64,000 nucleotides of DNA from Stieleria maiorica (lineage in GTDB: Bacteria > Planctomycetota > Planctomycetia > Pirellulales > Pirellulaceae), in assembly GCF_008035925.1 (NCBI RefSeq), contig NZ_CP036264.1, positions 2,412,443-2,476,442 on the forward strand, in the 5' to 3' direction. Within the stretch, counting starts at the first letter, position 1, and the number at the start of each line of letters is the position of its first letter. A program made the translations under genes and the position numbers. Positions 4,531-63,552 of this stretch are shown here, one piece after another. Under the pieces are notes generated by a model. That model saw only the letters and a list, made by a program, of their open reading frames with translations, did no database searches and was not told the origin of the DNA.

Positions 4531-4986
4531 GTGCCCTTTTTTGACAAGGCGTCTATTCCGATGCTCGTTTGGATCGATCGAATTTTGCTCCTGGCGCTGG
4601 TGATGGTGGTGGCGGTGCTCGTGTTCACTTCTTGGCCCGCCGCGATGGACGAGCAAACACTCGACGGCCAGGCGTTGCTGGTGCACATGATGGCCAGCGG
4701 AGTGCTGGTGATGGGGTTGCCGGTGTTCGCGTTGTTTTTTCTGCGATACCTGCCGGCCAAGCGGACGACGTCCTGGCTGCAAATCCTGGGCTACATCGCG
4801 ACCCTGGCTGCCGGACTGGTCACGATCGTCACGGTGTTCCTGTGCATGCTGCCGGTTGCGTCGACCCACCAGATGCATTCACTCATGTCGGTTCATGGCT
4901 GGGCGGGATTCATGATGATACCCGCGATCGTGTTGCTATTGATCGGAACGCGGGCTACACGATCAGCATCGCATCCCCATAGCTGA
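4531..4986 (+). CDS. small hypothetical integral membrane protein (about 4 TM helices)
   Basis: The ORF is hydrophobic throughout with no recognisable motif. It overlaps the 3' end of queA. Confidence 0.3.
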   Translation: MPFFDKASIPMLVWIDRILLLALVMVVAVLVFTSWPAAMDEQTLDGQALLVHMMASGVLVMGLPVFALFFLRYLPAKRTTSWLQILGYIATLAAGLVTIVTVFLCMLPVASTHQMHSLMSVHGWAGFMMIPAIVLLLIGTRATRSASHPHS

Positions 4987-6058
4987 AGAAGCGGTATTCG
5001 CTTTCGATCGCTTTGGCGTACGCCTCAAGAATCAGCTCGCGTGTGGCAAAGGCACTGACCAGCACCAGCAACGTGCTCTTGGGCAAGTGAAAATTGGTCA
5101 TCAACGCGTCGACGACCTGGAATCGGTAGGGCGGGCGGATGAACAGATCCGTGGTCGAGGTCCAGGCCCGCAGGTCACCCGAGAGGTCTGCGGCGGCGCT
5201 CTCGAGCACGCGGACGCTGGTCGTGCCGACGGCGACACAGCGGCCGCCGGAGGCCCTTCGCTGGACGATCAAGTCGGCGTTTTCCTCGGTGATCTGTCCC
5301 CACTCGGTGTGCATCTCGTGCTCCGACAGCGTCGCGGTGCTGATCGGACGGAACGTTCCCAGCCCGACGTGCAGCGTCACCGACGCGGTCTCGGTGCCTC
5401 CGTCGGCGATCTGACCGAGCAGACTGGGGGTGAAATGCAAACCGGCGGTCGGCGCGGCCACGCTGCCGGGCGTCTTGGCAAACACGGTTTGGTAATTGGA
5501 CACATCCGCATCGACCATGTGCCCGTCGCGAATGTACGGTGGCAGCGGCACGCGTCCGTAGCGACTGAGCCACTGATCGGCGCTGGCGGATTCTGACAAT
5601 TCGGCTTCATCGCCACCGAAGGCCAACCGATCGGCGGGGGGGCGAGGCAGCACGAGCATGTGCCCGTGTTCGGTCCGCGCGACTACTTCCAACCGCATGC
5701 CGGGCAACCCGTTGCGGTCTTCGATCGTGATGGTTTCGCCGGGAACCAGTTTTCCGCGGGTTTTGGTCAACACCTCCCAGATCCCTGTCTGGGCGTCTTC
5801 GCGCAAGAACAATCCCTGCCAGCGACCTTGGGTCCGAGTGCGGAACCCGACCATTCGCGCCGGGATGACGCGGCTGTCGTTCAGCACCAGTGTGTCTTCG
5901 CTTCGCAACAGGTCCGGCAGATCGCGCACATAGTGGTGTTCGATCTCGCCACTGCTGCGATGGACCAACATCAGCCGGGCGTCGCTGCGGGTCGCCAGCG
6001 GTTCCTGGGCGATTCGCTCACGGGGTAATTCGTAGTCATATAAATCGATTTCGCTCAT
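4955..6058 (-). CDS. queA: S-adenosylmethionine:tRNA ribosyltransferase-isomerase
   Basis: MSEIDLYDYELPRERIAQEPLATRSDARLMLV...GLHFT..LL...HVGLGTF.P...H.MH.E matches QueA throughout. I take the start at the internal Met, 45 nt downstream of the ORF-track start at 6103. Confidence 0.85.
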   Translation of the reverse strand: MSEIDLYDYELPRERIAQEPLATRSDARLMLVHRSSGEIEHHYVRDLPDLLRSEDTLVLNDSRVIPARMVGFRTRTQGRWQGLFLREDAQTGIWEVLTKTRGKLVPGETITIEDRNGLPGMRLEVVARTEHGHMLVLPRPPADRLAFGGDEAELSESASADQWLSRYGRVPLPPYIRDGHMVDADVSNYQTVFAKTPGSVAAPTAGLHFTPSLLGQIADGGTETASVTLHVGLGTFRPISTATLSEHEMHTEWGQITEENADLIVQRRASGGRCVAVGTTSVRVLESAAADLSGDLRAWTSTTDLFIRPPYRFQVVDALMTNFHLPKSTLLVLVSAFATRELILEAYAKAIESEYRFFSYGDAMLIV

Positions 6059-6170
6059 GGCCGAAGTGTAGCAGCCGGCCGTGCGATTGAAGATGGGAGG
6101 CAAGGCGGGCGACCGCTACGATCGGGGCCAAGTGAACGATCGGGAAGAGGCTGAAATCTGATTTGTTGGC

Positions 6171-7322
6171 GTGCCGAAACAGGGAGAGAATGCCGATCGA
6201 CAGGCCGGAAGCCTTTCCCATTTTTTCCCCGTTGTGATGCCGTATTACGACCTCAACGAACTTCGCCGAGCTGCGATGGGGCGGTGGGGCGAGATTTTGA
6301 TTTCCGCGGGCATCCCGGCAGCAGTCTTGGATGGTCGGAACCATCCCTGTCCCAAGTGTGGCGGGCGTGATCGATTCGCGGCATTTGGGGATCTGCAACA
6401 GCGTGGGGCGGTCCATTGCCGCCGTTGTTTTACCCGCGGCTGTGCGATCCGCCCGGGGGATGGGATCGCCACGCTGCGCTGGTGGCTGGGGTGTTCGTTT
6501 GCCGAATCGCTGGCTTTCCTGGCCGATGTGGTGGGCGTCCGGCCGGCCGTCGGCAGCCCCCGCAACCGACCGGCTGCGACTCCATCGTCCGGGTCAGCTT
6601 CATCGTCCTGCTCGGCGGCTGCGGTCCCCATCGACCAGTCTGCCGAAGCGATTGACAAGCACACCGCCTTCGCACGCGACGCCTATCACCGCATCGATGC
6701 TGCCACGCGTCGCCGGCTGGCCGAACAACTGACGGTCTCTCAGCACGCCTTACAGAGGCTCCGGGTCGGTGTGACCGCTGATGGCAACGGTTCCACATGG
6801 CCGATGCGAAATGAACACGAGCAAGTGATCGGCGTTCGCATCAGCGGTTTACCGTGGACGCAAAAACGAAACTGCAAATGGTCCCGCCGCGGCAGCCAAA
6901 GCGGGATCTTTATCGCCCGCCCAACCACCGGACCCGGCAGCACGAGAGGAATTCCGGAGACGCTGTATGTCACCGAAGGCGCCTCGGACACCGCAGCTGC
7001 GATCACGTTGGGCTGGTGGGCAATCGGAAGGGCCAGTTGCAGCGCGTCGACCTTTTTCGTCGACCGCTACATCCACCGACACCAGCCTCAACGACTTGCG
7101 ATCGTCGCCGACAATGATGAAGCCGGACGAAGCGGGGCCAAGCGATTGGCCAAGTCACTGTGCCAAACCCTGCCACGGTCCTTGAGCCACGTCGACGTGA
7201 TCGCTCCACCCGCACCGGCAAACGATCTCCGCGTCTGGGCGGCGATGTCTCCGATCAATCTGGCCGACGCCACAACGATCGCCACGATCCGATCGAAGAC
7301 GCAGAAGACGTTTCAGTTTTGA
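6171..7322 (+). CDS. phage/plasmid-type DNA primase: primase zinc-ribbon (CxxC-x17-CxxC with PCPxCGGxDRF) + Toprim domain
   Basis: [29 protein letters not shown] matches the Prim_Zn_Ribbon motif of P4-alpha/T7-gp4-type primases. The downstream [21 protein letters not shown]...[22 protein letters not shown] is a Toprim (E...DxD) fold. No helicase or D5_N domain follows. The true start may be Met23, near 6237. Confidence 0.6.
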
Positions 7323-7328
7323 GTTTCA

Positions 7329-7390
7329 GGAGTTGGGAGTTGGGAGTTGGGAGTTGGGAGTTGGGAGTTGGGAGTTGGGAGTTGGGAGTT
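7329..7390. repeat. heptanucleotide microsatellite (GGAGTTG)x~9
   Basis: A perfect tandem 7-mer array begins 7 nt after the primase stop codon. An inverted copy, (CTCCCAA)n, lies at 63526-63552. Confidence 0.95.
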
Positions 7391-7437
7391 TCATTTTTCC
7401 GCCCCCATTTTTCTGTCAAATCTCAGCTGCTACTCGC

Positions 7438-7473
7438 AAAAAAAAAGCGTCAGCGGATCCGCTGACGCTTTTT
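7438..7473. terminator. bidirectional intrinsic terminator
   Basis: An A9 run, the perfect 22-nt palindrome GCGTCAGCGGATCCGCTGACGC, and a T5 run sit between the convergent primase (+) and 7499-8968 (-) genes. Confidence 0.75.
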
Positions 7474-7498
7474 CGTGATGCGGTGGTTGCGATCGGCT

Positions 7499-8968
7499 TT
7501 AGAAGCACACGGCGCGGTCGCCGGTGTGGATCTTCGCCAAGCTGGCTGCGTCAGTGACGGTTGCGACTGACTGGTTGCCATTGACGCTGTTGATCAGCAG
7601 GTGTGCCACCAAGCGTTCTCCAGTCAGGTACTGATGGTAAACGGTCACCGAGGATCCGGGACGCATGGCTTGGCCGCTTCGCAGGATGACGCGGCCCGAT
7701 TTCTGATCGACTCCGACGACGGTCGCCACGACGTTCTTTCGTGCGGCCGGTTTGGGGGCGATGCGAGCTTGATCGGCTTGAGCAGCTTCTTTGATCGGGA
7801 GTGCGACCGGCATCGGCAGGGCTTGCGGTTTTTGTTCCGCCGCCGGGGCAGACGTCGCCGCGTCGTCACTGAGCGACAGCGAAACCGGCTTGCTGATCGA
7901 GCGGGTTGCGGGGGCATCGGAAGTCGCGGTGACCGGTGAAATGGTGACCGGTTGGATCGCCATGCCGCCGATCATTTTGACCTGACCGACTTCGACATCG
8001 GATCGCTGGACCTTGGCAGCTTGAAACAGTTTCAACCCTTCGGCGGTTGTGGTTGTGTCGGCACCCGCGGCACCGCTTGCGGCATCTGTGGCGTCTTCTC
8101 GAATCGGGGCTTCCAGCACTTCGGCCCCGGAGGCACCGGCACCTTCACCCTGAATCCCCTCGGCCTCCTCGGTGCCTTCACCGGAAATCGGATCCGGGAC
8201 GACCGGCGGCGGAACCAATTCTTCGGGCACGTCCTCTTCGATCGGTCCGGTCGCTCGATTCGGGCAGCACACGCACAGGGCTTTTGCCGCGGCGGCTCGC
8301 ACGTCCGCGTTGGGCTCCAAGTGGCAACCGCTGTCGTCGCGTTCGTAGGCGATTTCGCTCAACCGTTTGGTCACCTTCTCGCTGCAGCAGGACGTCGATC
8401 CGCACTTGCTGCACCCTTCGCCATTGGCAGCCGTTTCGATCGCATCGATTGCCGCCAATCGGACGTCCGGCGTGCAGTCGTCCATGGCCGCGAGCAGGGC
8501 ATCGGTGATCTTGCCTTCCTTGTCGTAGCATCCGCAGCCCATCTTGGCCAGGAACTTGATCGCCTTGATCTTCTGGGCCTTCAGGTCCTCGGCTTGCTTG
8601 ATCTCCGCAGCCGCTTTGATCGCCGGGTTGGGGGATTCCAGGTTGGCCGGATCGCCGATCCGCTTCAGCGGGGGCTTTCGTTCCAGGCCGGGAAAGTTAC
8701 CGCGGCGGTTGACCGTGACGTCGCGGATTTTTTGGATGCCCTGAGGGATTCCGATGAACCGCCAGATGGTCGGCACCGGCGCCTCGGTGGGCGTTTGGGC
8801 GTCAGACGGGGATGCGGTGGAAATGGCTAACGCTGCCACCGAAATCCAAATGAGATGATTCGTTTTCACCGTGGCATTCCATTGCGGTTTGTGTTTCGAT
8901 GGCGTTTCGCGAGGGTGATCGAATGGCTCCGCAGGGCGTCGATCCCATCGTTTCGCACACACACCCAT
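7499..8968 (-). CDS. secreted Cys-rich protein with HEAT/armadillo-like repeats (hypothetical)
   Basis: It has an N-terminal signal-like hydrophobic segment. Repeated LAA.DD..P.VRLAAIDAI / VRAAAAKAL segments are HEAT-like, with multiple CxC/CC pairs and a Pro/Glu-rich linker. No catalytic motif was recognised. Confidence 0.45.
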   Translation of the reverse strand: MGVCAKRWDRRPAEPFDHPRETPSKHKPQWNATVKTNHLIWISVAALAISTASPSDAQTPTEAPVPTIWRFIGIPQGIQKIRDVTVNRRGNFPGLERKPPLKRIGDPANLESPNPAIKAAAEIKQAEDLKAQKIKAIKFLAKMGCGCYDKEGKITDALLAAMDDCTPDVRLAAIDAIETAANGEGCSKCGSTSCCSEKVTKRLSEIAYERDDSGCHLEPNADVRAAAAKALCVCCPNRATGPIEEDVPEELVPPPVVPDPISGEGTEEAEGIQGEGAGASGAEVLEAPIREDATDAASGAAGADTTTTAEGLKLFQAAKVQRSDVEVGQVKMIGGMAIQPVTISPVTATSDAPATRSISKPVSLSLSDDAATSAPAAEQKPQALPMPVALPIKEAAQADQARIAPKPAARKNVVATVVGVDQKSGRVILRSGQAMRPGSSVTVYHQYLTGERLVAHLLINSVNGNQSVATVTDAASLAKIHTGDRAVCF

Positions 8969-9644: not shown

Positions 9645-12600
9645 TCAGAGCACTTCCAGCTTCAGATTACGGAACCGAACTTCGGTTTTGCCGCCGCTGT
9701 GGAGCTGGAAGGCGATGATGCCGGTTTCGGCGCCGTCGGGATCGTGCAGGTCGACACAGGGCTGGCCGTTAAGAAAGGTCTGGATGTGGTGTCCGCGGGC
9801 GACGATTTCATACGTGTTCCACTCGCCCGGCTTGACGTGTGACTCGCCGGATTGATCCCACAGCAGCTTTCGTCCGTGTTCTTCGTACAGCTTGCCCCAC
9901 CAGCCGGCGCCGATGTCGGCTTGGTATCCGGAAACTTCGCCGTCGTGGGCGCGGCTGCGGAACTGGATCCCGCTGTTTCCGGCGTTCTCGACCAATTTGA
10001 CTTCGACGGTCAATCGAAAATCAGCGACCGAGAGATCACTGACGATCCAATCGTTGCGGCGCAGCCCGTCGGTCCGCCCGACCAATTCTCCGTCTTCCAC
10101 CGACCACAGGGATGGATCGCCATTCCAGTGTGACAGATCGGTCCCGTTGAAGAACGCCGCGGCATTCTCTTTGGTTGCCCGCATCGGTACTTGCTGTTTC
10201 CCGCGCAGGTAGGCGATCAACGAACGGACTTCGTGTGGCGAGAACTGTTTTAATTGGTCATCGGGCATCATCGACTTGTCGGCTGTTGCGCGCTGTTCGA
10301 TTTCATCTTTGGGAATCACAACGACCGCATCGGAGGTTTGGACGGTGAGCGAGAACTCGTCTTCGGCCTTGACCAGTCCGTTGACCACGCGACCGTCGTC
10401 GACCAAGACGACCGTCGGCACGTATTCCTTGGCCATCACGGCGCTGGGGTCGACGATATTCGACAACAGGTACTCCAAGTTCGCGCGGTTCGATCCGGTC
10501 AGATCCGGTCCGACTTTGAAGCCGACGCCGTACAAGACGTGGCACTTCATGCAGGTCTTGGCAAACACGGCGCGCCCGAGTTCCAGGTCCGCCGGCGGGT
10601 GATCCGTCGAGGCGACCAGTTGCTTGTACTCACCGATCATCGCCAATTTGTCGGCCGCCGATTCGCGGGCGACGCCCCAGACATTGTCCAGCATCGCATC
10701 GATTTTCTTGTTGCCCAAGAATTGCAACTGCCGGACCAGGTCGGCGGTCAAGTCGGTGCCGGGGATCTGTTCGGCTTCGATGGCCGTCAGCAGGGAGATA
10801 CCGGGATTGACCCGCGAGCACAGCGTCGCCAGCGCCGAACGCTTTTGGGCCGGATTGAGTTCTCCGTAGACCTTCAGCAAGGCCGGCGCGATGGCAGCGT
10901 CGTCGTACTGTGCCAGTCCCCGGATCGCGTCGTCCCGCAACGGTGAGTCGACTTTCAAAAGATCGATCAGGGTCGGGACCAAGCCGGGGTCGTCCATGTC
11001 CAGCAGTGACCGCAGGGCGACTCGCCGGGTCTCCAACGGCGCGGACGCATCGGCGACTTGCGTTCGCATCGCCGCGAGCGCTTGCTGGTCGCCGAACGTG
11101 ACCCCTAGGGCAACCGCTTGCAAGCGGACGTCGTGATCCGGGCTGGACAGCAGCTTCCGCGCGACCAACGTCCACTGCGTTGGCGGCTTCACTTGGCGTC
11201 GTCCTTCCAATGAAGATCGGATCGCGTTGAGGTAGGTCAGTTGCGTGGCCGCGTCGCTTGCGCGTCCGAGTGCCACCACCAGGACGGTCAGGGAGTCTTC
11301 GCCGCTCTGGCCGATTCGCCGCAACATGAATTCTCGCAGCAACGGGATTCGCTCGCCCGCCGACATCGCCAACGCGATCGCCCGCGAGGCATCCAGATCG
11401 GCGAGCGGTTCGGCCGCATACCAGTACATCAACGGCAAGTTGTGGTCGCGGGTGTCTTCGGCGTGCGAGGTCAATGCCTGCAGCAAGTCCCAACGCGAAT
11501 CCAAGGCCAGTTTTTGGGCCGCCGAGGCGAGGTACAAACGCACGATCGGCGAATCGTCCTCGCCGGCCATGTCGACGAATTGTTCTAAATACTCCGGAGT
11601 GACATTCCCCGCTGTCGATTCCATCACCATTTGGATCGACCAACCGCGAACGTAGGGGCTTTCGTCAGCCATCAGGGAGCGAGTAACGTTGGAATCGAAA
11701 TTCCCCGTCACGTGCAGTGCCCACGCGGCGCGCAGCCGGCGCGTGTCGTCGGTGTGTGTCGTGGCGATTTGGCGTAGCCACGTGACGGCTTCGGTTGCGA
11801 TCACCCGCTCCGCGGCTCGTTCCTGCAGCACCCGACGGCCGTGGCGGACGTACCAGTCGTTGGCGTGAAGCGTCAATTCGGCCAACTGCAGATCGCTGGC
11901 CGAGCCGAAGTCGATCTCCGGCGCGGCGGCGCCGACTTCGTCACCGTAGCTGATCTTGTAGATCCGGCCGTTGCTGCGGTCGTGCAGCGTGGATTCGCGG
12001 CGGTGACAAGCCTGCATGTCGTACCAATCGATCATCCACGCGTTGCCGTCGGGCCCGTAGCGGAGGTTCAAAATTTGCGAGGCCTGGTCGCCGGTTAACA
12101 GAAAATCGGGACCGTGGCGTCCGACGTATCCCGATCCGGCGGGTTCCAAGACGTCGACGTTCAAGCGTTGTCCGTGAATGTTGTTCATCATCAATTGGCC
12201 GCGGTACTTTTCGGGCCACGTGTCACCCAGATAAATCATCGCCCCGGCATGCGCGTGGCCTCCGCCGGCAGAATCCGATTTGCTGTTGCCCCCGTGCGGC
12301 GTGGCGCCCAGGTAGTGCAGGTGGTCGGCAATGGTGACGATGTCGCGGTAGGTGTGGTTGTTGAAATGCCGGCCGCCTTGGCGTTGATAGCGGGCGCCGT
12401 CGATGATGTGGTACAGGTGCGGGATCACACAGGCGGTGATGAAGGCTTGGCCGTGATCGTTGAAGTCCACGCCCCAGGGGTTGCTGGTGCCGTGGGCGAA
12501 GACTTCGAACTCGTGGCGTGTGGGATGGTATCGCCAAACGCCGCAATTGATCGGCGTCCGCTGGTCGTCCGGCGTTCCCGGTTTGCCGACGCGGGAGTGG

Positions 12601-38404: not shown

Positions 38405-38721
38405 TCGACTTACGCAAACCAAGGATTTGACGCTGACAGAGCACTAGGCTGGGGCAAAGGATCGGTTGACCGGTCGGCAAAGAGCCCGTCGGGGGCCCAG
38501 GCGGGCCGACCAAGTCGTCCAACGATGCCCTGATGGTATCTGTCGTTTGCCGCCGCTCAACTTGCAACTGAAGCAAAACCGAGGTTTCAAATCATTTTCG
38601 TCGCTCCGGCCTTGCCTTGATCGTTACGAACGGAATGCCTTATCAGGATTTGCCGTCAATTCGCCAGTCCGTGGACTTCTTCGCCCAAAGATTGACTACC
38701 ACGCTGTTCCAATTGGCCGAG

Positions 38722-38833
38722 CTAAAAGGGGTCAGGTACCAAAAATGCGCGAGCGAAAAGGGGTCAGGTACCAAAAATGCGAAGCACCCTTCGGGCCATT
38801 TGGTTTTTGGTACCTGACCCCTTTTCGCGCTCC
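38722..38833. repeat. hairpin element copy 2 plus an adjacent half-copy
   Basis: The half element AAAAGGGGTCAGGTACCAAAAATGCG (38724-38749) is immediately followed by a full hairpin (38753-38828) identical to copy 1. Confidence 0.9.
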
Positions 38834-42901: not shown

Positions 42902-42986
42902 GGATGGGTGGCCGAGTGGTCGAAGGCACTGGTCTTGAAAACCAGCGTAGGGCAACCTACCGTGGGTTCGAATCCCACCCCATCCG
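42902..42986 (+). tRNA. tRNA-Ser (anticodon UGA)
   Basis: The acceptor stem is GGATGGG/CCCATCC. The D-arm is GCCGAGTGGTCGAAGGC. The anticodon stem-loop is CTGGT-CTTGAAA-ACCAG, giving TGA. A long variable arm (CGTAGGGCAACCTACCG) is present. The T-arm is GTGGG-TTCGAAT-CCCAC and the discriminator is G. CCA is not encoded. Confidence 0.85.
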
Positions 42987-63521: not shown

Positions 63522-63525
63522 TGAC

Positions 63526-63552
63526 TCCCAACTCCCAACTCCCAACTCCCCC
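63526..63552. repeat. heptanucleotide microsatellite (CTCCCAA)x~3.5, an inverted copy of 7329-7390
   Basis: CTCCCAACTCCCAACTCCCAACTCCCCC lies directly after a stop codon. Confidence 0.9.

Follow-up and report, generated by a model that had tools for sequence, protein, structure and literature searches.

How does a primase of phage or plasmid type come to stand alone among the housekeeping genes of a bacterial chromosome? The question is raised by a gene at 6237..7322 (+) in a 64,000-nucleotide stretch of the Stieleria maiorica chromosome (Planctomycetota, Pirellulaceae; contig NZ_CP036264.1, positions 2,412,443 to 2,476,442), hereafter the window, which a first-pass annotation had described as an orphan primase, either the remnant of a degraded integrative element or a domesticated enzyme. 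What emerges is more orderly than an orphan remnant, namely a primase domesticated throughout the genus, whose lineage-specific tail resembles a motif for binding the beta sliding clamp (DnaN). As the best overall explanation we favour, with moderate confidence, a domesticated stand-alone primase that would be recruited by the clamp instead of by a helicase.

The mechanical open reading frame (ORF) of the first-pass annotation, 6171..7322 (+), is present and opens with GTG, however the 383-aa product read from that codon does not hold. The start is almost certainly the ATG at 6237 and not the GTG at 6171, because the N-terminus MP(F/Y)Y.., kept in all orthologues, begins there and because the resulting 361 aa (plus stop) fit both the length of the orthologues and a database entry of S. 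maiorica (P0001), to which the protein read from 6237 is 100% identical. The stretch 6171-6236 is probably a 5′ leader, and residues are counted here from the M at 6237.

The protein opens with a zinc ribbon of the phage/plasmid primase-helicase type at aa 33-76 (6333..6464, +), reading C38-P-K-C41-GGRDRF...H60-C61-R-R-C64, which passes the Pfam model PF08273 (Zn_Ribbon_Prim; 26.4 bits, cut-off 23) and whose four ligands C38, C41, C61 and C64 do not vary among 65 homologues. A low-complexity flexible linker at aa 110-131 (6564..6629, +), of variable length and sequence across alignments, separates the ribbon from the catalytic core. The core consists of the N-terminal subdomain of the RNA-polymerase domain at aa 136-240 (6642..6956, +), delimited by profile alignment to the Escherichia coli DnaG core 1EQN, Foldseek and conserved columns, and of a Toprim subdomain at aa 241-340 (6957..7256, +), delimited by conservation together with profile and structure matches. 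The former carries TWPMR..G.VIGVR and KWS..GS..G(I/L)F, equivalents of DnaG motifs II and III, and the latter the Toprim motifs E247-G-A-S-D251 and D292-N-D294-E-A-G297, plus D330; among the same homologues E247, D251, D294 and D330 never vary, and D292 is kept in at least 90%. The Pfam model Toprim_2 stays slightly under its cut-off (19.2 bits against 22.1). A family profile of the 65 homologues aligns to 1EQN (E 7.8e-6), and also to 1DD9, from motif II to motif VI including the Toprim EGxxD, DxD and D, with motif II of the family (tWPmRD..G.viGvR) set against FPIRDKRGRVIGFGGR of E. coli DnaG; it aligns to the T7 gp4 primase as well. In an AlphaFold (AF2) model with a mean predicted local distance difference test score (pLDDT) of 88.6 and a predicted template-modelling score (pTM) of 0.69, the linker falls below a pLDDT of 50, and the top PDB matches found by Foldseek are the E. 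coli DnaG cores 1EQN (E 1.5e-8) and 1DDE, with further matches to 2AU3 (Aquifex zinc ribbon plus core), 1NUI (a T7 gp4 fragment), Twinkle and T4 gp61. Judged by sequence and modelled fold, the product is a primase of the DnaG/Toprim superfamily, for which primer synthesis would be the expected activity.

Within that superfamily it belongs neither to bacterial DnaG nor to the bifunctional primase-helicases, since defining features of both classes were tested and are lacking. The equivalog model of bacterial DnaG, TIGR01391, gives 14.2 bits against a cut-off of 283.6, and a C-terminal DnaB-binding domain is absent, the chain ending at aa 361, about 30 aa past Toprim motif VI. A Pfam scan of the protein finds no helicase or D5_N domain and nothing beyond Toprim, and PHROG primase families 510 and 849 match. 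The first-pass annotation had thus been right to see a phage/plasmid-type zinc ribbon and the two longer Toprim motifs, to separate the protein from bacterial DnaG and to note the missing helicase or D5_N domain, but its suggestion of a primase-polymerase-like factor named the wrong family: profile and structure matches place the protein with DnaG/Toprim primases and not with PrimPol of the archaeo-eukaryotic primase type.

Several known systems help to place the window primase. P4 alpha and the Toprim primases of plasmids and of integrative and conjugative elements share with it the order of a PF08273 zinc ribbon and a Toprim core, together with a mobile-element origin, and the N-terminal ~90-100 aa are 38.5% identical to those of phage P4 alpha and resemble conjugative-plasmid Toprim proteins. 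However, P4 alpha is fused to D5_N and a superfamily 3 helicase, whereas the window primase ends soon after Toprim, lacks a helicase both in cis and in its vicinity, is encoded by a vertically inherited chromosomal gene and has the clamp-motif-like tail. The T7 gp4 fragment and Twinkle show the same succession of zinc ribbon, flexible linker and Toprim domain (structure matches 1NUI, 6N9X and 7T8B), yet both proteins retain a fused DnaB-like helicase where the window gene has kept the primase half only. Twinkle, the classic example of cells taking over a phage primase-helicase (PMC8987985), is also the closest precedent for the retention of a phage-type primase in a cellular lineage. T4 gp61 (match 8DVF) is likewise a stand-alone protein of ~340 aa with zinc ribbon and Toprim and without a helicase-binding domain; it partners the gp41 helicase, encoded separately in the same genome, whereas the Stieleria gene has lost its adjacent ATPase. 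Bacterial DnaG, finally, has the same catalytic fold and acidic metal ligands but a different zinc-finger family, and carries the DnaB-binding domain that the window primase lacks.

Where the gene came from is answered by its relatives. A scan limited to one genome per species gave 80 loci, nearly all from Pirellulaceae, which were divided into element-borne and lone sets by clustering of flanking ORFs, Pfam and a neighbour-joining (NJ) tree. The element arrangement is seen at 31 related loci, where a DUF3631 or DUF3987 ATPase, a small Cys-rich ORF and/or a tyrosine integrase come after the primase. The ATPase of the element-borne set lies on the same strand after the primase and is of the P-loop type DUF3631, DUF3987 or AAA_25, the last being found at locus L029, where the integrase stands upstream of the primase. 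DUF3631 is the RepAM initiator family of actinomycete integrative elements (PMC3218068). A small Cys-rich ORF and a tyrosine integrase of ~450 aa are usually present as well; in 13 of the 17 loci checked the integrase end touches or overlaps a tRNA gene, and att repeats bound elements of 13.4 kb (L030:1651-15081) and 7.6 kb (L036:6920-14535). Pirellulaceae genomes thus contain small elements of 7.6-13.4 kb (loci L011-L048) inserted at the 3′ ends of a wide range of tRNA genes and made up of a primase, one of the three ATPase types, the Cys-rich ORF and an integrase gene that overlaps the tRNA with its 3′ end; up to 3-4 element-borne primase copies occur per genome. Outside Planctomycetota the similarity is largely limited to the N-terminal ~100 aa and leads to P4 alpha, conjugative-plasmid Toprim proteins and IMG/VR contigs. 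When 1.84 billion cluster representatives were searched with a profile, 10,496 relatives came back; the superfamily is a large mobile-element primase family of which the lone type is a tiny fraction. Many relatives of ~280-300 aa (P0124-P0215) match the catalytic core alone (profile ~117-340) and look like Toprim primase-like proteins without a zinc ribbon.

The window primase is homologous to these element primases, yet itself stands outside any element, showing none of the adjacent ATPase, tyrosine integrase, tRNA and att repeats of the Pirellulaceae elements. The integrase, ATPase (DUF3631, DUF3987) and small-ORF families of the related elements gave no tblastn match in the 64-kb window, whose sole tRNA lies at 42902, 35 kb from the primase, and all neighbours Pfam-scanned within ~15 kb are housekeeping or metabolic genes. 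A repeat search found no direct repeats flanking the primase gene, an Rfam scan of the locus for structured RNA returned the distant tRNA only, and GC content, GC content at third codon positions and synonymous codon usage of the gene are indistinguishable from those of its neighbours. A hidden integrative element around the primase was rejected on these grounds: a near tRNA, flanking repeats, a homologue of integrase, ATPase or small ORF and an anomaly of composition are all wanting. The statement of the first-pass annotation that no integrase or phage genes lie near is borne out across the 64 kb, and the comparison of codon usage with the flanks that it had called for returns a host-like gene.

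Lone copies like that of S. maiorica occur in S. mannarensis, S. magnilauensis, S. sedimenti, strains SM50 and RhM, S. tagensis, S. varia, S. marina, Roseiconus nitratireducens, whose inclusion in Stieleria has been proposed (PMC12254169), and several metagenome-assembled genomes. No ATPase, integrase or tRNA was found near them. They form a monophyletic clade in 175 of 200 NJ bootstraps calculated with the tail columns left out, and all 19 lone loci examined lie in housekeeping contexts, every subclade having its own stable neighbourhood. The clade is limited to Stieleria and a few related lineages, and the sister genera hold element-borne copies only; lone and element-borne copies coexist in some genomes (L002 with L020/L025; L009 with L016).

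No operon partner is conserved across the lone clade, and the neighbours differ by subclade. The primase stands beside queA only in the six closest species (core Stieleria), and a functional link to queA was rejected on account of this confined synteny, queA of S. varia and S. marina following ruvB with the primase not near. The widespread ruvB-queA linkage is kept in these two species (L163, L165) and broken in the S. maiorica group. The differing genomic positions of the lone primases reflect general rearrangement. The first-pass annotation had named as decisive against a mobile origin the presence of orthologues next to queA in all related planctomycetes and a lack of phage-like relatives; the synteny extends to six species only, and mobile-element relatives are abundant.

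The lone gene is under purifying selection. Within the queA-linked group, pairwise ratios of nonsynonymous to synonymous substitution rates (dN/dS, omega) range from 0.12 to 0.29, unsaturated pairs included. Between S. maiorica and S. mannarensis the primase gives dN 0.075, dS 0.417 and omega 0.18, beside omega 0.04 and dS 0.32 for queA and omega 0.135 and dS 0.41 for the gene of the HEAT-repeat protein downstream, so that the primase equals its neighbours in synonymous divergence but is under looser constraint. Its identity across species (84, ~69, 56, 47, 46 and 42%) follows the same rank order as that of queA (97% in S. mannarensis, ~91% in the S. magnilauensis group, then 83, 81, 73 and 68%). 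None of the 27 lone-clade proteins has lost its reading frame, a zinc ligand or a catalytic residue. The pattern is that of a gene inherited vertically in the Stieleria clade and, as far as conservation indicates function, as a functional one; we consider it very probable that it encodes a domesticated, functional primase. The case agrees with what is described in general for the exaptation of genes from mobile elements (PMC8987985). Of the two origins that the first-pass annotation had left side by side, domestication is upheld by the dN/dS values, the intact frame and the housekeeping loci. The idea of a remnant stands in its first half, as the gene descends from the replication module of an integrative element, and fails in its second, as purifying selection, intact catalytic residues, native composition and clade-wide conservation do not fit decay.

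What sets the lone proteins apart is their C-terminus. About 34 residues past the PP..D Toprim motif, at the C-terminus or a few residues from it, they carry the motif Q-x-x-(F/L/M)-x-F, which is found in its strict form in 26 of the 27 lone-clade proteins, the 27th (S. varia) reading QLLLGF in the tail alignment. The Q (Q356 in S. maiorica) is invariant in all 27 and the final F (F361) at least 90% conserved, among surrounding columns of 10-40%. In S. maiorica the motif is the hexapeptide QKTFQF (aa 356-361; 7302..7319, +), which tail alignments show to be the signature of the lone clade and which is a candidate for binding the beta clamp; it forms the last six residues, following a final strand at E346-352, where pLDDT drops to 78 and then 66. 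In deeper members of the clade the motif reads QLTFDF, QLTLQF, QLLLDF, QLTMDF, QLSFAF, QLLLGF or QLTFF. None of ~50 element-borne primases has the motif; their C-termini consist of a strand, for instance ALMLAIRR or RSLSLGK, and then a basic tail. Counted by locus, the motif is present at every lone-context locus with adequate flanking sequence and at 0 of 31 element-context loci, so that lone status is strictly associated with the tail motif. Shuffled lone tails produce the motif 3.6% of the time, and it occurs in ~2% of the unrelated long ORFs at these loci, a figure that includes the primases themselves.

Four further proteins from housekeeping contexts, outside the main NJ clade, end QRLLF (P0046/L062), QRRLF (P0087), RRWLF (P0050) and PMLFE (P0067). 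The best matches of P0087 include members of the main clade, and it has no close orthologues in the database. The tails RRWLF and PMLFE belong to a second lone group that adjoins a CxxCxxCC (PF03692) gene (L166:5512-9618, L168:851-2534). At L166 the lone primase lies directly 3′ of a gene for a UvrD-family helicase on the same strand, which hints at a repair-related neighbourhood.

Natural clamp-binding motifs take the forms Q-aliphatic-x-[L/M]-[F/L] and Q-aliphatic-x-[L/M]-x-[F/L]; the tightest binders are QLxLF and QLxLxF, the motifs are often C-terminal, and position 2 is tolerant (PMC11139829). The deep-member tails QLTLQF, QLLLDF and QLTMDF match this definition in full, and QLTFDF, QLTLQF, QLLLDF and QLTFF are counted here with the tight-binding form QLxLxF/QLxLF. 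Among clamp ligands, Pol II, Pol IV, Pol III alpha and Hda resemble the lone primases in carrying a short Q-x-x-hydrophobic-(x)-F/L peptide within a tail that is terminal and poorly ordered. Transposases of mobile elements use the host clamp, and those of clamp-binding insertion sequences give a precedent for mobile-element proteins acting there (PMC4549789), whereas the tail of the window primase is only predicted to bind. That the tail docks the primase onto DnaN is a tentative proposal drawn from the motif, and several points weigh against it. QKTFQF of S. maiorica departs from the definition at position 2 (K) and position 4 (F). A 2024 review of the beta clamp names primase in its introductory description of the replisome only and not as a ligand, and a clamp-recruited primase is without precedent in that review (PMC11139829). 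The tail is rich in F and mildly acidic and could have DnaB, SSB-interacting surfaces or some other molecule as its partner instead, and the association of tail and context may rest on 1-3 evolutionary events only, because the deep NJ branching is weak. In addition, no conserved partner gene or regulatory signal was found that would indicate a specific pathway.

Clamp recruitment of a domesticated primase could have arisen as follows. The ancestor was the primase of a small tRNA-integrating replicative element, of a kind that remains common in Pirellulaceae, which encoded a primase, an ATPase (DUF3631, DUF3987 or AAA_25) and a tyrosine integrase. In an ancestor of Stieleria and Roseiconus the primase gene parted from ATPase and integrase and settled as a resident chromosomal gene. 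The zinc ribbon would select the template site, as in T7 gp4 or T4 gp61, and the Toprim centre would link nucleoside triphosphates into a short RNA primer. For the element-borne relatives the adjacent ATPase presumably acts as helicase or initiator and so gives the primase access to DNA. The lone lineage has no ATPase partner; here the C-terminal peptide would dock in the DnaN cleft and deliver the primase to clamps at forks, gaps and stalled sites, where it could re-prime or support replication restart.

The strongest competitor keeps the domesticated, active primase and changes only the role of its tail, which would recruit the enzyme to a partner other than the clamp (DnaB, SSB-binding surfaces or a restart protein) or stabilise the fold. 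We regard it as rather unlikely: all the evidence for domestication fits it equally, and the two departures of QKTFQF from the canonical clamp motif speak for it, as does the habit of replisome proteins to contact one another through short F-ending tails, an example being the SSB C-terminus, which binds DnaG (PMC3632105). However, tails of the SSB type are strongly acidic and end in PF, which those of the lone primases do not, and the invariant Q five residues ahead of the conserved F, with a hydrophobic residue at +3, has the spacing of a clamp motif. Exact matches to QLxLxF among deep members of the clade argue in the same direction.

A new function altogether, either as a Toprim nuclease or RNA-processing factor or as an anti-element decoy that competes for the element ATPase or the clamp, appears improbable. 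In its favour, lone and element-borne copies share some genomes, as in the two cases given above; Toprim also serves nucleases, RNase M5 being among the weaker structural matches; and PADLOC reports a weak Toprim match to a DnaG-like protein associated with defence reverse transcriptases (DRT). Yet the zinc ribbon and the equivalents of DnaG motifs II and III are as conserved as the Toprim residues, which is expected for primer synthesis and not for a nuclease. The PADLOC match covers a generic Toprim segment only, and a defence-gene neighbourhood is missing.

An inert leftover of an integrative element, without host function and awaiting deletion, is very improbable, even though the nearest relatives are element-borne and the primase evolves faster than its neighbours (84% identity to S. 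mannarensis against 97% for queA; omega 0.18 against 0.04). Such a leftover would hardly keep its frame and its catalytic and zinc ligands in 27 of 27 lone-clade proteins from many species, nor the low dN/dS that holds in unsaturated pairs too. Its composition is fully ameliorated, att repeats, adjacent tRNA and integrase are absent, and a new conserved tail motif has been gained. That the gene has become the replicative primase of Stieleria by displacing the canonical DnaG, a near-universal single-copy bacterial gene, is scarcely credible for a protein that evolves fast for an essential replisome component and whose lone clade is limited to Stieleria and a few related lineages beside sister genera with element-borne copies only, although a search with approximate E. 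coli queries found no dnaG or dnaN in the window (64 kb of a 9.9 Mb genome) or in the planctomycete loci.

The remaining features of the locus concern its setting. Upstream and divergent lies queA (4955..6103, -; PF02547, E 9e-123), and beyond it msrB, a prepilin peptidase gene, an IF-2B-family gene and a gene for a DUF1559 protein. Downstream and convergent lies the HEAT-repeat gene (7499..8968, -), assigned by Pfam and synteny comparison and followed by genes for a 1943-aa DUF7133 protein, sulfatases, an oxidoreductase and a desaturase. Both immediate neighbours are context only. A defence system was considered and rejected, PADLOC giving a generic Toprim match to the DRT-associated DnaG-like model alone and nothing for the neighbours.

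Between the primase and the HEAT-repeat gene, a perfect palindrome of 16+16 nt stands between an A-run and a T-run at 7442..7473. It was missed by a terminator scan and recovered by repeat search and folding (-24.1 kcal/mol, z = -4.6), is conserved in three orthologous loci (L001, L002, L004) and is a bidirectional intrinsic terminator common to the two convergent genes. A sigma-70 promoter scan of 5900-7600 returned zero sites. The sequence GATCGACAGGCCGGAAGCCTTTCC, an imperfect palindrome (ACAGGCy-GGA-AGCCTrT), lies at 6195-6218 of the window, 20-40 nt upstream of the primase start. The motif also precedes the orthologues of four other Stieleria genomes (L002-L005; ~40-75 nt before the ATG at locus position 10001), with two copies in L005, whereas L001 and L026 have none; it may serve as an operator or form a hairpin of the 5′ leader.

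The 3′ untranslated spacer holds a microsatellite, (GGAGTTG)x8.9 at 7329..7390 (+), which Tandem Repeats Finder (TRF) reports with period 7, 8.9 copies and 100% matches. It starts 7 nt past the stop codon at 7320-7322, exactly as the first-pass annotation had placed it, and lies outside the functional unit. A functional link to the primase was rejected, the array being absent from the 160 loci searched and the orthologous spacers holding other sequence; it is a species-specific intergenic microsatellite with no evident link to the primase. At the same site S. mannarensis has 2-3 GAGTCTT units, and other species have palindromes resembling repetitive extragenic palindromic (REP) elements. The GGAGTTG heptamer occurs twice in the 64 kb, at 7329-7390 (+, x8.9) and at 63524-63550 (-, x3.9), in both cases directly 3′ of a stop codon. 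The G-rich strand of the arrays reads as GGGAGTT repeats (G3N4), from which G-quadruplexes could form. REP-like palindromic units with AAAGGGGTCAGG(C/T) form a tandem pair at 38718-38781 of the window, and such units fill the spacer between primase and HEAT-repeat gene in S. magnilauensis and strain RhM (L002:11110-11230, L004:11110-11230).

Primases of the DnaG/Toprim family, in the bacterial and phage systems known so far, reach DNA by way of a helicase, which is fused to them, encoded next to them or bound through a dedicated domain. The Pirellulaceae therefore offer a natural experiment, with one primase family that has a helicase partner in mobile elements and does without one as a host gene. 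It is an attractive but doubtful prospect that the lone Stieleria-type proteins are the first DnaG-family primases recruited by the beta clamp and not by a helicase, serving as helicase-independent enzymes of re-priming or restart. Should this be true, a clamp-tethered lone primase would be the functional bacterial counterpart of re-priming in the style of PrimPol. If the tail does bind DnaN, it would represent a new mode of primase recruitment and a case of a selfish replication gene turned into a factor of chromosomal maintenance. If its partner is a different one, the gene would still be a well-documented example of the domestication of a mobile-element gene in Planctomycetota, a phylum whose replication biology has been little studied.

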